Virus record (IMG/VR): IMGVR_UViG_2802429240_000004
Coordinates: 1-15,960 of that record
DNA from: a virus
Lineage: Duplodnaviria; Heunggongvirae; Uroviricota; Caudoviricetes
Direction: 5' to 3' (one strand)
Length of the DNA: 15,960 nt
A program made the translations under genes and the position numbers. This document shows, in pieces, positions 4,887-9,530 of this stretch. The notes beneath the pieces were generated by a model. That model ran no database searches and was not told the DNA's origin. It worked only from the letters and a program-made list of their open reading frames with translations. Each line of letters opens with the position of its first letter. The first letter of the stretch is position 1.

Positions 4887-5173
4887 AAATAACCTTCCTT
4901 TCTCCAGATTTCTTGTGTGCGAAAAACACCTTCTGCATGCATCAGGCGTAATTCTTCTTTGGTGTAATCGCTGGTTTTTACCCGCCCGTCGATTAAATCG
5001 TGGCACGAGCTACAGGCAATCGCTGCCTGCATATCGTGTGGCTTTATCGCTGTTCCGCACGTTCCCGCCAGTCGGTAATGCGCCAGCACAGACGTTTCCG
5101 GATCGTGATTGCAGTAGCCAGGAATTCTGACGGTGCACATCTGGCCTTTAGCCGCTTTACGTAAATCCACCAT
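4883..5173 (-). CDS. nin-region Cys-rich protein (DUF1364 / YbcO-like)
   Basis: 96-aa ORF MVDLRKAAKGQMCTVRIPGYCNHDPETSVLAHYRLAGTCGT...ACSSCHDLID, with the conserved Cys/His pattern I recall for DLP12 YbcO-family proteins. Start overlaps the upstream stop (TAATG). Confidence 0.7.
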   Translation of the reverse strand: MVDLRKAAKGQMCTVRIPGYCNHDPETSVLAHYRLAGTCGTAIKPHDMQAAIACSSCHDLIDGRVKTSDYTKEELRLMHAEGVFRTQEIWRKEGYL

Positions 5174-5772
5174 TACGCAAACTCCAGTAGTTGTGCAGCC
5201 ACATTTTCGACTTCCTCCGGAGAGGAGAATTTACGGAACAGAATCCAGTTCCACAGTACGTTGAGTACTGCTTTATAAACCTGCTGAAACTCGGTTTCGT
5301 CCATATTCGCAAAAGCGATGGATTTCGCCCTGCGCCCACGGCTACCATCCGGATAAAAATGCTCGGTGTAAAATCCGGCCTGAATGGTTACCCACTCGCG
5401 GAAAGCCTCAAACGACTTTAGCAATGCCGTATCCTGGGTTCTGCGTGTCGCAACTGTATTCAGATATTGCTCTGCGGCTTCGCTCAGAGCTGGCGTATGT
5501 TCCCGGCCTACTGATTCACACAGGTAATCAACGAATCCTGAAACCAGTTTTCGTTCGCGAGGAGTGATCGCCCCACCGACCGGAGTCCAGTAATCGAATC
5601 CGAGTTGCAGAAGTTTGAAAAAACGCTTATGGAATGCGTAGTTACGTACACGCTTAAAGTCTGCGTGTACCCACTCACCTATTTTGATTTGATGCAAAAA
5701 ATCGCAACTCTCCGGCGTCGCCGGGAGAAGTAATCCGGAAGAGGTTTGTTTGACCAGTTGTATATGTGCCAT
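5173..5772 (-). CDS. nin-region protein (DUF1367-like)
   Basis: 199-aa ORF with GGAGAAA about 5 nt upstream of the ATG. Family assignment is from memory of lambdoid nin-region proteins and is not verified. Confidence 0.6.
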   Translation of the reverse strand: MAHIQLVKQTSSGLLLPATPESCDFLHQIKIGEWVHADFKRVRNYAFHKRFFKLLQLGFDYWTPVGGAITPRERKLVSGFVDYLCESVGREHTPALSEAAEQYLNTVATRRTQDTALLKSFEAFREWVTIQAGFYTEHFYPDGSRGRRAKSIAFANMDETEFQQVYKAVLNVLWNWILFRKFSSPEEVENVAAQLLEFA

Positions 5773-5838
5773 CGGCTTTCTCCGGTGGCACGGTGTTACT
5801 CAGCAGGAGTTCAATCCTGCTCAAGATTGTAGATGAGT

Positions 5839-6099
5839 TTATTCTTCAGCAAAAGCAGAAAAACCAGCCTTAAAACCAATCTCTTTCAAAACCCCTAATG
5901 ATGTGACAAATTCGTCCTCACGCAAAATAAAACCGTCCGTCAGAAGTCCATTACAAAAATAAAATAACGCAGCTCCACTCTTCCTTTGTTGAGACTGTAA
6001 ACATTTAATACGGCAGTGACTGACAATAGCGCCATTCTCAACGCGCACAGTATAGAGGCCATTTTCACTAAAAATTTCACGCAATTCTTCGATTTTCAT
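5839..6099 (-). CDS. Hypothetical protein (86 aa) between the hok locus and the nin genes
   Basis: ORF MKIEELREIFSENGLYTVRVENGAIVSHCRIKCLQ... with GGAAGGA 9 nt upstream of the ATG (the track starts 3 nt earlier at a TTG). Occupies the position of rem next to hokD in the E. coli Qin prophage; no sequence-level claim is made. Confidence 0.5.
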   Translation of the reverse strand: MKIEELREIFSENGLYTVRVENGAIVSHCRIKCLQSQQRKSGAALFYFCNGLLTDGFILREDEFVTSLGVLKEIGFKAGFSAFAEE

Positions 6100-6220
6100 C
6101 AACAGAATCCTTCCAGATAAATAGCACTCCCCTGTTCGGGGTCCATCCCTCTTCTCCCTGCGCGCTACTTAAGTATTTTTGATTCTATTCCGGCACTATC
6201 CAAAACTTCAAACGCGTTGA

Positions 6221-6250
6221 AAATAAAAACAAAAACCCGCCGAAGCGGGT
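6221..6250 (-). terminator. Intrinsic terminator of the hok mRNA (minus strand)
   Basis: ACCCGC-cgaa-GCGGGT hairpin (6235-6250) followed on the minus strand by TTTTGTTTTTATTT. Preceded by the imperfect palindrome GGCGGGAGATTTCTCCCCCGCC (6291-6312), typical of folded hok mRNA 3' ends. Confidence 0.5.
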
Positions 6251-6319
6251 TAAGTGTGGGTGCATTGAGGATGCCTGACACATCAGAGGTGGCGGGAGAT
6301 TTCTCCCCCGCCAGGTCTC

Positions 6320-6472
6320 TTACTCCTCAGGTTCGTAAGCTGTGAAGACAGCGACCTCCGTCTGGCCGGTTCGGATTCGTACCTCGCAGAGGTCTTTCCT
6401 CGTTACCAGTGCCGTCACTATGACGGTTAAACAGATGACGCTCAGGGCGATTAACATCGTCTTTTGCTGCAT
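6320..6472 (-). CDS. hok: Hok/Gef-family type I toxin (small membrane peptide)
   Basis: Manual translation gives MQQKTMLIALSVICLTVIVTALVTRKDLCEVRIRTGQTEVAVFTAYEPEE (below the ORF-track size cut-off). Single TM helix and conserved Cys; nearly identical to my recollection of E. coli HokD/RelF. An in-frame GTG lies one codon upstream. Followed by a strong terminator. Confidence 0.8.
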   Translation of the reverse strand: MQQKTMLIALSVICLTVIVTALVTRKDLCEVRIRTGQTEVAVFTAYEPEE

Positions 6473-6620
6473 CACAGCCTACTTACCCTTACCTTTCGTT
6501 CAAGCGGTAAGGTCACTTTTTCTGTTGTGTGCTAACCAATAAACCTCTTTTATCTGCATTAAAATTCGCTATCATGTCATCCTCAACCTGTTAATAGCCT
6601 ATTATGGACTTTAGTAAACA

Positions 6621-8450
6621 ATGAGCACTTCCGCATACAAGAGCAAAATTCGAACACTCCAGTGCGCGTTAAAAAACGGTGAATTTGAACCATTCATACA
6701 ACATATCCGTTTTCCATACTTTAAAAATATAGAGCAGAATGCAAGGATCGATTTTCAGTTCCCTATAACGGCTTTAGTAGGAAAAAATGGAACTAATAAA
6801 AGTTCTGTTATCAAAGCGCTATTTGGTTGCCCACATGGTAAAAATATAACTCGTTATTGGTTCACAACTGAAACAGATGAGTTTCCTGACCTAAAACTTG
6901 CTGATGGCAGTTCTCTTAAGCCTAGATATATATATGGATATAAAAATGCTGATGGCCGTTTAGTTGAAATACTCCAAGCGCGTATCAATGCTACCAAGAA
7001 AACAATCGATTATTGGGAAACAAGTCGACCATCTGTTGGTGATAACATGGAGAGCATTTCGGATGATCTGGGTGCTAATAGTAATGCAACCAGATGGAAA
7101 AAAATCAAGAAGGGATTGGTTTTCCTAGATTTCAGATCGGAAATAAGTGCATTTGATAGATGTATGTATCACTCTGATCCTAAATTAAGAAAGAAGAAGA
7201 GTGGTGTATTAATTACAAAGCAAGACTATATCAGAAGCAAATCTAAATATATAAAAAAAGCTTTTGATGAAAAGCTAAGTAATTTAAGACTTTGGGGGAC
7301 GGAAACCATTGTTAAAAATATAACCTTGGCGCCAGAACTAGTTGAGCACGTCTCATTTATATTAGGGAAAAAATATAAAGTCATTAAATTTCTTGAGCAT
7401 CGGTTATTTGGAACCAAAGGAGGAACCGTTTTACTTTCAACTGATAAGTTGAACTATACAGAAGCTTTTGCTGGAAGTGGTGAATTTGCAATAGTTTCAC
7501 TAATACTCAATATTTATTCGGCCAAACCTAATTCATTAATTCTTCTTGACGAACCAGAAGTTTCACTTCACCCTGGTGCACAGAAAAGGATGATGGATGT
7601 TCTGTACTCTATTGTTGAGCAGAAAAAACATCAAGTGGTAATATCAACCCATTCTCCTGTTATTGTGAACACTCTTCCCAAAGATGCCATTAAATTATTT
7701 GTTTTTGATGAAGAAAGTGAAACAGCTAAAATAGTTCAAAATATAGCACCGGATGAAGCTTTTATAGAGCTAGGGCATGATATTAACAAGAAAACAATAA
7801 TTGTAGAAGATAAATTAGCTAAAGCAATTATAGATAAAGCGATTAAAAATGATGAAAGATTAAGCTTATCATTTAGTGTAAGTTATATACCAGGTGGTTC
7901 GGAGACCATTTTAAGCAAGCATCTTCCCAGTTACGCTGTGGTAGAACGCAATGATATTTTGTTTTTACTTGATGGTGATAAGAACAAAAAAATAAAACCA
8001 GTAAGAATTAGTGAAATTGCTGATGCTGATTTAGTTAATACAATGTGCAAATATTATGGTTGCGAGTTAATTATCAATGCCAGTGGTAGTAATGGCAAAA
8101 AAAATGAACAAGAATCTAATAGACTCAAAAGGCAAGTGCTTGAGTATGCATTCAATAAAGTGCAGTATTTACCATTTGATACTCCCGAACAATTACTCAT
8201 TGAAAAGGCAATTACGCCAAGTGAAAAAGAAATAATTGATTCACAGACCTGGAGTTCTGATGATCCAGAACTGTATAAGAATCAAATAAGATTATTAGCG
8301 CAACACCTGTATGATAAAGAAGAAGTAAATGCAGAGGAAATTTTTTGCCTCCAACAAATAATGACCGCAAGACTTAAAAATGAATTGCCTGAATTTATAA
8401 AAATAAGAAAAATAATTACTCAGGCTCTTGACCGTGGTATCATTAGGTAG
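6621..8450 (+). CDS. OLD-family ABC-type ATPase with C-terminal TOPRIM-like nuclease domain (609 aa)
   Basis: Walker A GKNGTNKSS, signature-like AGSGEF, Walker B SLILLDEPEVSLHP, H-loop VISTHSP. The C-terminal region has a TOPRIM-like glutamate (TIIVEDKLAKAII) and DxD (LFLLDGDKN). Strongly AT-rich; opposite strand to the surrounding phage genes. Confidence 0.75.
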   Translation: MSTSAYKSKIRTLQCALKNGEFEPFIQHIRFPYFKNIEQNARIDFQFPITALVGKNGTNKSSVIKALFGCPHGKNITRYWFTTETDEFPDLKLADGSSLKPRYIYGYKNADGRLVEILQARINATKKTIDYWETSRPSVGDNMESISDDLGANSNATRWKKIKKGLVFLDFRSEISAFDRCMYHSDPKLRKKKSGVLITKQDYIRSKSKYIKKAFDEKLSNLRLWGTETIVKNITLAPELVEHVSFILGKKYKVIKFLEHRLFGTKGGTVLLSTDKLNYTEAFAGSGEFAIVSLILNIYSAKPNSLILLDEPEVSLHPGAQKRMMDVLYSIVEQKKHQVVISTHSPVIVNTLPKDAIKLFVFDEESETAKIVQNIAPDEAFIELGHDINKKTIIVEDKLAKAIIDKAIKNDERLSLSFSVSYIPGGSETILSKHLPSYAVVERNDILFLLDGDKNKKIKPVRISEIADADLVNTMCKYYGCELIINASGSNGKKNEQESNRLKRQVLEYAFNKVQYLPFDTPEQLLIEKAITPSEKEIIDSQTWSSDDPELYKNQIRLLAQHLYDKEEVNAEEIFCLQQIMTARLKNELPEFIKIRKIITQALDRGIIR

Positions 8451-8473
8451 TGATTCTGGATGCAGAGGGAAAA

Positions 8474-9514
8474 ATGAAAAAAATCAAAGTGTTTGACTTC
8501 TTTTCCGGTTGTGGTGGAACCAGCCAAGGTTTCCATCAAGCTGGAATGGATATTGTTTTTGGCCTCGATTTCGACGTTGATGCAGCCAGTTCATTTCGTG
8601 CAAATTTCCCGCAGGCTGCTTTTATTAACTCGGACATTAGGTTAATCGACAACAATGCCATAAACAAGTTAGTAAAAAAACATCGTAATGATTACATTCT
8701 TTTTTCAGGATGTGCGCCTTGTCAACCGTACTCTAAGCAAAACTCAAATAAAAAAAATGATGATCCACGATTAGATCTATTAAAGGAATTCAGTCGTTTT
8801 GTAGAGCATTATATGCCTGATTTTATTTTTGTTGAAAACGTGCCTGGAATGCAAAAGTTTAACAAAAATGAAGGAACATTCATGATGTTTTTAGAAATGC
8901 TTTCATCAAAGGGATATAGTGTAGATTATAAAGTAATGCCAGCTGCGTGGTACGGTGTACCACAGACGCGAGAAAGATTAGTGCTCATTGCATCCAAGGA
9001 TTTTTATGTCGCATTGCCTTCTCCTACACATGGGGTTGGAAATACTCCCTATTCAACAGTAAAGGACTGGATCGCTAATTTACCGAAGATAGAGGCAGGA
9101 GAAAAGCATAATAGTATTCCTGATCATGAAGCTGCACGCTTATCAGAGCTTAATTTACGTAGAATAAAATGCACTCCTGAAGGTGGAAGTCGAGAATTTT
9201 GGCCAGATGAATTGATTTTAGAATGCCATCGTAACCATAAAGGGCATACAGACGTATATGGACGTTTGAGTTGGGACAAACCAGCCAGCGGACTAACAAC
9301 TCGTTGTATTAGCTATTCAAATGGACGTTTTGGACATCCAACACAAAATCGAGCAATATCGGTTCGTGAAGCAGCGTGTCTACAAACATTTCCTTTGGAT
9401 TATAAATTTATTGGTTCTTTGCAATCTCGGGCTCGTCAAATAGGAAATGCGGTCCCTCCGAAGATGTCTGAAACGATTGGAAAACATTTGCTTAATATAA
9501 TCAAAGCCTCCTAG
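8474..9514 (+). CDS. DNA (cytosine-5)-methyltransferase
   Basis: Motif I FDFFSGCGG, motif IV catalytic GCAPCQPYS, motif VI ENV, motif VIII QTRERLVLIA, motif X IGNAVPP; variable region between VIII and IX. GAGGGA precedes the ATG at 8474; alternatively starts at the GTG at 8450 overlapping the upstream TAG. Operon with the ATPase gene. Confidence 0.85.
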   Translation: MKKIKVFDFFSGCGGTSQGFHQAGMDIVFGLDFDVDAASSFRANFPQAAFINSDIRLIDNNAINKLVKKHRNDYILFSGCAPCQPYSKQNSNKKNDDPRLDLLKEFSRFVEHYMPDFIFVENVPGMQKFNKNEGTFMMFLEMLSSKGYSVDYKVMPAAWYGVPQTRERLVLIASKDFYVALPSPTHGVGNTPYSTVKDWIANLPKIEAGEKHNSIPDHEAARLSELNLRRIKCTPEGGSREFWPDELILECHRNHKGHTDVYGRLSWDKPASGLTTRCISYSNGRFGHPTQNRAISVREAACLQTFPLDYKFIGSLQSRARQIGNAVPPKMSETIGKHLLNIIKAS

Positions 9515-9530
9515 GAGGCTTTATTTTATT
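9501..9530 (+). terminator. Perfect 20-bp palindrome plus T-tract terminating the ATPase-methyltransferase operon (probably bidirectional)
   Basis: AAAGCCTCCTAGGAGGCTTT is identical to its reverse complement and contains the methyltransferase TAG stop; it is followed by TTATTTTATT. Confidence 0.55.

Follow-up and report, generated by a model that had tools for sequence, protein, structure and literature searches.

Gene organization of the hok locus

The DNA analysed here (the window) is the whole 15,960-nucleotide stretch of the IMG/VR virus record IMGVR_UViG_2802429240_000004. Its minus strand carries at 6320..6475 a hok coding sequence of the HokD type, with 51 codons followed by TAA, as defined from the ORF list with its translations and by Pfam. 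A rem homologue (5839..6102, minus strand; 67% identity to K-12 Rem, E=7e-37) is found directly downstream, and a DUF1367 protein (Pfam) is encoded on the same strand at 5173-5772. Like the HokD/RelF-type orphans, hok here precedes rem and DUF1367 and lies within the nin/Q region of a lambdoid prophage. On the other side of hok the plus strand codes a cargo cassette (6621..9514; Pfam, PADLOC) composed of an OLD/ABC-type ATPase gene (6621-8450; Pfam AAA_21/AAA_15) and a C5 cytosine methyltransferase gene (8450-9514; Pfam DNA_methylase). PADLOC matches in the cassette are HEC-04, ATPase-Toprim_I-B and MTase_II. The cassette ends at a bidirectional terminator-like hairpin (9502-9523), identified by the terminator scan between the phage early genes and the cassette, so that read-through into hok would need antitermination. 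The intergenic leader between hok and the ATPase gene is 145 bp long (6476-6620).

The initiation codon of hok is GTG at 6475-6473, and an alternative ATG at 6472-6470 is its second codon in the ORF listing. A first-pass annotation of this DNA had reported a 50-codon minus-strand ORF, whose peptide is matched exactly from the ATG but whose start has to be moved one codon upstream to the GTG, giving 51 codons. The GTG aligns with the ATG of canonical hok genes in the alignment to complete loci, and a 156-nt ORF with the same start is the RefSeq annotation in genomes that have the window's junction. Residues 6-46 match Pfam PF01848 (HOK_GEF) at E=2.6e-22 and 78.6 bits, the cut-off being 22, over profile positions 2-42 of 42. 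BLAST searches show that the segment 6103 to ~6500 shares 95-97% identity with hokD as annotated in thousands of complete E. coli genomes, and that it also resembles lambdoid-phage genes named “gef”, “MokW” and “HokD”. The Pfam match and this identity to annotated hokD bear out the earlier assignment to the Hok family and to the HokD type, and the alignment to HokD/RelF and other hok loci agrees with it, K-12 HokD (relF, in the Qin prophage) differing at only three of the 51 residues (K2M, A6T, I12S). The ORF at 6320..6475 is thus, as judged from its sequence, a genuine and intact Hok/Gef-family toxin gene. The exact 51-aa protein is already annotated in RefSeq (WP_201796409.1, “type I toxin-antitoxin system toxin HokD [Escherichia]”), and the gene is of the ordinary orphan hokD type. 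The residues that we take to be the counterparts of the conserved R1 Hok positions (C15, T17, L29, C30, E31, E40 and E48 here) are all present. The list of residues conserved for R1 Hok is from a preprint (10.1101/2025.08.07.668861) in which K-12 HokD and 42 of 45 homologues were toxic on test. The window peptide is probably still toxic.

The 3′ region of hok

The conserved hok 3′UTR (6252..6319, minus strand), which is near-invariant among the aligned hokD-type loci, contains a 10-bp hairpin at 6312-6291 and an intact fbi box, CCUCAAUGCACCC, at 6270-6258. It is followed by a Rho-independent terminator (6224..6251, minus strand) whose stem-loop at 6251-6234, identified by the terminator scan, has a 7-bp stem with five G-C pairs and precedes a T-run. 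Whole hok transcripts fold much better than their dinucleotide shuffles (z=-4.25 and z=-4.9). The structured 3′ sequence and the intrinsic terminator described earlier from the sequence are therefore both found. The 3′ fbi element and the terminal hairpins expected of hok/mok/sok loci are also present. The fbi box is identical to the one that base-pairs, in the complete JNU locus, with the 5′ tac sequence GGGUGCUUGAGG; the alignment to complete hok loci shows no such partner at the window locus.

A relationship of this 3′UTR to the small RNA IsrK was considered and rejected. The isrK match is sub-threshold (25 bits here and 33 bits in Rac, for a gathering score of 50), the Salmonella prophage that matches the hok 3′UTR holds a decayed hok without an isrK match, and the IsrK paper does not mention hok. 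The match is treated as a resemblance of hairpin and terminator.

Absence of the hok leader, mok and sok

The Rfam family RF01794 (“sok”) in practice describes the 157-nt hok mRNA leader, read on the hok strand and spanning the 5′ tac sequence GGGUGCUUGAGG through the hok AUG. It recognizes the positive controls K-12 hokC (118 bits), Rac-phage hok (111 bits) and hokB (110 bits). The same model gave no match at E<=1 over 5800-7000 (1.2 kb), none at E<=10 with the most permissive filters over 6440-6660 (221 nt), and nothing at the gathering score anywhere in the window; at these three stringencies no Rfam sok match was found on either strand. Similarity to other hok loci ends at ~6498-6502 in BLAST, and a residual diverged match to the complete loci of JNU, mEp460 and Rac extends in the alignment back to ~6512, ~37 nt before the start, with nothing further. 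A GGTGCTTGAGGCT box is located 146-169 nt upstream of the ATG in 76 of the 80 best IMG/VR hokD-like loci and is not found in the window at the corresponding distance upstream of hok. Two of the other four loci have the K-12 relE-type junction and two are cut by an IS3-type element. The 80 loci were picked by protein identity and their proteins are all identical, so that no valid comparison of synonymous and nonsynonymous changes can be drawn from them.

In a complete locus Mok is a 70-aa in-frame N-terminal extension of Hok. No reading frame runs from the window leader into hok, all three minus-strand frames being closed just upstream: the hok frame by a TAG at 6481-6479 (CAG to TAG), where canonical loci read through as Mok, the +1 frame by stops at 6515-6513, 6491-6489 and 6485-6483, and the third frame as well. 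The sokC-encoding region of hokC spans -49 to -107 from the hok start, and the equivalent region of the window is junction or cassette DNA. No plus-strand terminator able to end a small antisense RNA was found in 6100-6760, hok's own terminator being the only one there.

The intergenic region is composed of three pieces. The hok-proximal ~37 nt (6476..6512, minus strand) are a diverged hok leader remnant that comprises only the translation-initiation region, as established by alignment to complete loci and to the 80 IMG/VR loci, by folds and by inspection of the frames. A short junction of ~17-23 nt (6513..6529) shows no alignment to canonical hok leaders and no clear one to the upstream regions of the cassettes. 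The remaining ~85-90 nt (6530..6620, plus strand; upstream alignment and position weight matrix (PWM) scan) are the ATPase upstream region that travels with the cassette. Citrobacter and Klebsiella have a conserved counterpart of ~6530-6620 in front of their ATPase genes (83% identity), and no hok is found among the called genes within 3 kb of those cassettes; by this alignment the segment is part of the ATPase/C5-methylase cassette.

The first-pass annotation had named the locus a Hok/Sok-type type I toxin locus and had reasoned that the leader “must carry” the hok promoter, the mok start and any sok gene. Neither statement can be kept: RF01794 is silent, the frames are closed, ~85-90 of the 145 bp are cassette DNA, and neither a sok-like element, tac and ucb elements nor a mok frame was found in the leader. 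Because the leader has been lost along with the start of mok, the Sok target and sok itself, antisense control by Sok and mok-coupled translation are impossible at the window locus. It is a 5′-truncated, mok-less and sok-less orphan hok of the HokD/RelF type, with no working hok/sok module.

Promoter-like sequences and translation initiation

The assignments of promoters, transcription start and translation given below come from consensus scans and thermodynamic folds. A promoter-like sequence TTTATC-15-TATCAT directed toward the ATPase gene is found at 6549-6575 on the plus strand and is conserved in the Citrobacter and Klebsiella copies. On the minus strand, TTGAGG-17-TTTAAT at 6586-6558 is directed toward hok; it is the best σ70 match, at the 99.97th percentile of the window, with a start predicted at ~6551 by the PWM scan. 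The TTGAGG hexamer is specific to the hok-linked E. coli lineage, Citrobacter having TTATGG at this position. The two predicted divergent promoters overlap at 6549-6586, back-to-back in cassette-derived DNA. Co-regulation of hok and the ATPase gene, as had been put forward for this locus, is an idea drawn only from these overlapping promoter-like hexamers.

The window-type hok lineage differs from canonical hokD by an ATG to GTG change of the start codon, an AAG to ATG change of the second codon and a change of the Shine-Dalgarno sequence from AAGGAG to AAGGGT. In the folds, the weakened Shine-Dalgarno AAGGGU is held in a 7-bp hairpin formed by CCUUACC (6512-6506) and GGUAAGG (6493-6487). The GUG is covered by the 5′ arm GUAGGCUGUGA (6472..6482, minus strand) of a helix predicted in both the MFE and centroid folds, whose 3′ arm UCACAGCUUAC (6335..6345, minus strand) lies in codons 44-47. 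The CAG to TAG and ATG to GTG changes turn what is an interrupted pairing in canonical loci into this perfect 11-bp helix GUAGGCUGUGA/UCACAGCUUAC, with a duplex energy of -15.9 kcal/mol, compared with -6.5 kcal/mol for its canonical counterpart. In three window-type loci the start codon is predicted to be unpaired with a probability of 0.000, compared with 0.22-0.35 in canonical and K-12 hokD. The GTG start, the weak Shine-Dalgarno and the start-burying helix suggest, on these folding predictions, that hok is translationally silent.

The 3′ arm of the helix also contains a TACG motif (6337-6334), in the Tyr47 codon. TadA edits TACG at Tyr46 of HokC/D/E (PMC5630033). The sequence motif for TadA editing is thus present in the window, at a site that the folds predict to be paired and outside any loop. 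The TACG-embedded Tyr codon is retained in window-type copies.

Distribution of the hok-cassette junction and of the cassette

Of 5,426 complete E. coli genomes, 32 have the leader, in every case together with the ATPase, and the leader/junction is also found in 11 IMG/VR contigs. E. coli ATCC 8739 and O103 RM8385 are among the strains with an identical junction; hokD-like places in E. coli genomes number ~10,000 overall. The genomes that share the junction carry a Rac-like prophage with ydaS/T/V, kilR, sieB and trkG. Conservation among copies with the junction is ~98-99% over the leader and the initial ~25 nt of hok, and the remainder of the gene is mosaic. An uninterrupted 51-codon ORF is found in each of the 14 window-type copies examined, and hok is annotated as intact in both E. 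coli loci inspected. The variant codons among window-type copies comprise 11 nonsynonymous versus five synonymous ones. Both the terminator stem and the T-run are eroded in the ATCC 8739 sublineage, and a Salmonella prophage has a deletion-riddled hok at the same position.

The cassette boundary was set by a protein search for ATPase homologues and inspection of their contigs. Homologues were found in Citrobacter and Klebsiella (83% identity), Salmonella (67%) and Pantoea (63%), in each case followed by the methylase. These cassettes are located at prophage or island ends beside an integrase gene, and the flank looks tRNA-like when the upstream regions of the Citrobacter, Klebsiella and Salmonella loci are aligned. 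The region upstream of the ATPase in the Pantoea locus is unrelated to that of the window. Within 3 kb of the related cassettes in these four genera, neither the called genes nor the listed ORFs include a hok.

Comparison with characterized hok loci

Sok-less hokD genes have been known since the work on K-12. The K-12 Qin prophage has the gene order relB-relE-hokD-rem-ydfU-Q, in agreement with the earlier remark that its hokD adjoins nin/Q genes, and the window shares with it the hok-rem-DUF1367(ydfU)-Q synteny, the near-identical toxin and the conserved 3′UTR and terminator. K-12 hokD likewise lacks the hok leader, mok and sok through rearrangement, an absence of canonical toxin-antitoxin components that has been described (PMC12214031), and it is transcribed and edited (PMC5630033). 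The two truncated genes differ in what precedes them. K-12 hokD keeps only ~17 nt before its ATG, with an intact AGGAG, whereas the window gene has ~37 diverged nt, a GTG and the weakened Shine-Dalgarno. The former is fused behind the same-strand relBE genes, and the latter is beside the divergent ATPase/methylase cassette. The window hok is thus not the third gene of a relBE operon, and the earlier observation that relBE are not upstream holds. The truncations of the two genes are separate, independent events.

The complete hokD-like loci of mEp460, Rac and JNU occupy the same genomic slot and code toxins of the same family. Their CDS and 3′UTR, and those of hokW-sokW of Sp5 (EHEC O157 Sakai), are >90% identical to those of the window locus; in contrast to it, all four possess Sok, a Mok frame and a complete leader of 146-169 nt. 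As the window has none of these, loss of Sok cannot be the trigger here. The only tested role of a prophage hok is that of HokW, which aids lysis and release of Sp5 after induction (PMC8621323). With hok/sok of plasmid R1 (parB) the window shares the Hok-family peptide and a recognizable fbi box and terminal mRNA hairpins. The R1 system is plasmid-borne, whereas the window locus is prophage-borne and without tac, ucb, mok, Sok target and sok gene; post-segregational killing as in R1 cannot operate there. Both the enrichment of hok in prophages and Sok-less hokD have been described (preprint 10.1101/2025.08.07.668861), and no long-standing question is opened by the locus. Its consequence is for annotation: the label “hok/sok toxin-antitoxin system” is wrong for a locus that has no antitoxin, no mok and no native promoter.

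Interpretation of the locus

The locus probably contains an intact HokD-type toxin gene whose control region was replaced by the cassette and which is now poorly expressed. The gene occupies the usual hok slot of Rac/Qin-like prophages, between the replication module and the rem-DUF1367-DUF1364-Q genes, and a rearrangement that brought the oppositely oriented ATPase/C5-methylase cassette replaced everything upstream of ~-38. This removed the hok promoter together with the tac and ucb boxes, the start of mok, the Sok target and sok itself, leaving the ~37-nt initiation remnant, the CDS, the 3′UTR with a partnerless fbi box and the terminator. We infer that hok is tolerated because it is poorly expressed. 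At the transcriptional level this could be due to the lack of a dedicated canonical promoter and to the 9502-9523 terminator, which would insulate hok from the early operon; at the translational level, to the GTG start, the weakened Shine-Dalgarno and the 11-bp start-burying helix. If Hok is made at all, this would most likely occur under strong antiterminated early-right transcription at prophage induction. The induced toxin could then add to membrane damage and lysis, as HokW does for Sp5 (PMC8621323); otherwise hok would be a silent passenger. Two observations count against poor expression or silence: the TTGAGG-17-TTTAAT match, given which hok may not be transcriptionally silent, and the intact ORF in 14 of 14 copies, which could mean that the gene is still in use. 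Conversely, the 11:5 ratio of nonsynonymous to synonymous variant codons and the decay of the ATCC 8739 terminator suggest a relaxed constraint, which fits a relic better than a conditionally used toxin. The locus would be an example of a cargo insertion that decapitates a type I toxin-antitoxin module, with a surviving toxin gene that bears changes predicted to lower its own translation initiation.

That 6476-6620 nevertheless holds a complete hok/mok/sok module, with promoter, mok start and sok gene, is extremely unlikely. The Hok-family ORF has its conserved 3′UTR, fbi box and terminator, and 76 of the 80 best phage-borne hokD-like loci of IMG/VR are complete, but RF01794 is silent here though its controls score 110-118 bits, no open frame leads into hok, and no plus-strand small-RNA terminator was found in 6100-6760. 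Moreover, ~6530-6620 is cassette DNA that is conserved where the called genes nearby show no hok, and the segment equivalent to sokC (-49 to -107) consists of junction and cassette sequence. The alternative that control was rewired through the cassette-derived leader has three components. A tac-like box, GUUGAGGAUG (6587-6578), would pair with the fbi region CAUCCUCAAU (6273-6264); a 20-codon leader ORF (6575-6513), whose end adjoins the base of the Shine-Dalgarno hairpin, would act as a mok analogue; and/or the ATPase promoter/5′UTR would oppose hok transcription and so tie hok to the cassette. Some features are consistent with this: a 10-bp leader:3′UTR helix appears in both the MFE and centroid folds of 6620 to 6228, TTGAGG occurs in the hok-linked E. 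coli lineage where Citrobacter has TTATGG, GAGG precedes the ATG of the leader ORF by 5 nt and the stop of this ORF (6515-6513) lies beside the hairpin, and the predicted divergent promoters overlap (6549-6586). The 9-nt perfect complement between leader and fbi region is reached by 55 of 2000 shuffles, a p~0.03 that is weak after several features were examined. However, TTGAGG is the -35 hexamer of the best hok promoter, whose start at ~6551 leaves both the box and the leader ORF outside the RNA. The mini-ORF (MIANFNADKRGLLVSTQQKK) was rejected as a mok analogue: its first 13, conserved codons are cassette promoter DNA, present where no hok is seen nearby, its Shine-Dalgarno is not conserved in the relatives' cassettes, and its few variants are mostly nonsynonymous (three versus one synonymous). 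Related cassettes, in addition, occur without a neighbouring hok in four other genera. Rewired control is on this evidence quite unlikely.

Two further readings differ on whether the truncated gene retains a use. It might be a functionless relic, a decaying hok left by the rearrangement and neither expressed nor selected. The 11:5 ratio of nonsynonymous to synonymous variant codons, the eroded terminator stem and T-run of ATCC 8739-type copies and the deletion-riddled hok at the same position in the Salmonella prophage are in line with decay, and chromosomal hok loci except hokB are described as inactivated (PMC12214031). On the other hand, all 14 window-type copies keep the uninterrupted 51-codon ORF and the TACG-embedded Tyr codon is kept. 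The residues matching conserved R1 Hok positions, as we take them from the R1 sequence, are likewise all present. The changes of the lineage, furthermore, all lower initiation, a pattern more suggestive of selection against expression of a still-toxic product than of random decay. We regard the relic as a possible but rather less probable outcome. The other reading is that the cassette-linked hok lineage evolved a Sok-independent self-silencing, from which the toxin would be released by a specific trigger as a conditional effector tied to the cassette or to induction. Two point changes, CAG to TAG and ATG to GTG, would here stop upstream in-frame translation, weaken the start and complete the hiding helix, and the trigger might be RNA processing, antitermination of transcription at induction or an interference involving the overlapping divergent ATPase promoter. 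This is unlikely. The intact but poorly expressed orphan toxin gene is the reading that we retain.

Variability of the site upstream of hok

Lambdoid prophages vary greatly at the site just upstream of hok. The 1.1 kb upstream of hok fall into 37 clusters among 76 IMG/VR loci, and among the upstream contexts found elsewhere are PD-T7-1 and a Ser/Thr kinase paired with a PP2C phosphatase. Since hok is not enriched near defence systems (12% versus 9.4%; preprint 10.1101/2025.08.07.668861), its adjacency to the cassette is best regarded as a side effect of a cargo hotspot.

Cargo upstream of hok and the ATPase/methylase cassette

The DNA directly upstream of hok in lambdoid prophages looks like a hotspot for cargo or defence genes, with hok as its boundary. 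Over about 0.26-1.4 kb from hok, this region is highly variable among the IMG/VR hokD-like loci (L010-L089), forming 37 sequence clusters in 76 contigs, and its cargo is often found in the opposite orientation. Examples are PD-T7-1 upstream of hok in mEp460 (E=4e-157) and a PD-T4-6/mad6-like Ser/Thr kinase together with a PP2C phosphatase (example coordinates in comparison loci: L003 4116-5465; L022 1100-2591). A SAM methyltransferase and IS3-type transposases also occur there.

The ATPase and C5-methylase pair of the window (6621-9514, plus strand) is a mobile two-gene cassette. The ATPase stop codon and the methylase start codon overlap at 8450. In PADLOC the ATPase matches HEC-04 and ATPase-Toprim_I-B best, and the top match of the methylase is MTase_II. 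Among the cassette loci compared (L101-L107, L009), those of Citrobacter, Klebsiella and Salmonella lie at the integrase-proximal prophage end; the early-region position adjoining hok was seen, in these loci and the window, in Escherichia only. The methylase gene converges with the DUF977 gene, and between them is found a perfect palindromic hairpin (AAAGCCTCCTAGGAGGCTTT, 9502-9523) with T/A-rich flanks on both strands. It is likely a bidirectional terminator, leaving the cassette insulated from the early operon of the phage.

The hok 3′UTR and the rem homologue

A 15-codon uORF (MDPEQGSAIYLEGFC, 6099-6146, minus strand) follows a purine-rich stretch (GGGAGAAGAGGG). The TGA of this uORF and the start codon ATG of rem, the gene after it, overlap as TGATG. 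This layout suggests that the uORF and rem are translationally coupled. The rem gene is called a prophage antirepressor in one Rac record.

The small RNA isrK is an Hfq-binding sRNA of Gifsy-1. Its Rfam model matches the hok 3′UTR over its full length (6230-6311, minus strand) with a sub-threshold score of 25 bits (gathering score 50), and the Rac hok 3′UTR (L002 1646-1726) likewise gives a full-length, sub-threshold match of 33 bits. The likeness extends to the gene order, as the hok 3′UTR is also directly upstream of a small uORF followed by a rem gene. Homology to isrK is unproven because the single Salmonella relative checked carries a decayed hok and gave no isrK match. The uORF-rem arrangement is itself reminiscent of orf45-anrP of Gifsy-1 (PMC4825925).

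Hok variants and Mok annotation

In the prophage Salmonella phage ZC-S1_prp (OK490361.1), the corresponding site upstream of the DUF1367 gene and Q is occupied by a hok pseudogene that has several deletions within it (L108, about 1480-1800). Its record annotates this pseudogene as hypothetical proteins only. Codon 12 of the window Hok (6440-6442), within the transmembrane helix, encodes Ser; this position is Ile in all other copies examined, canonical and cassette-linked alike.

Mok labels differ from record to record (L005 452-661; L001 6218-6430; L002 1742-1948). The mokC and strain JNU upstream ORFs are in the same frame as hok, amounting to an N-terminally extended Hok, while the annotated frames of mokB and the Rac-phage mok differ from that of hok. 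The label "MokW" sits on the Hok ORF itself in some phage records.
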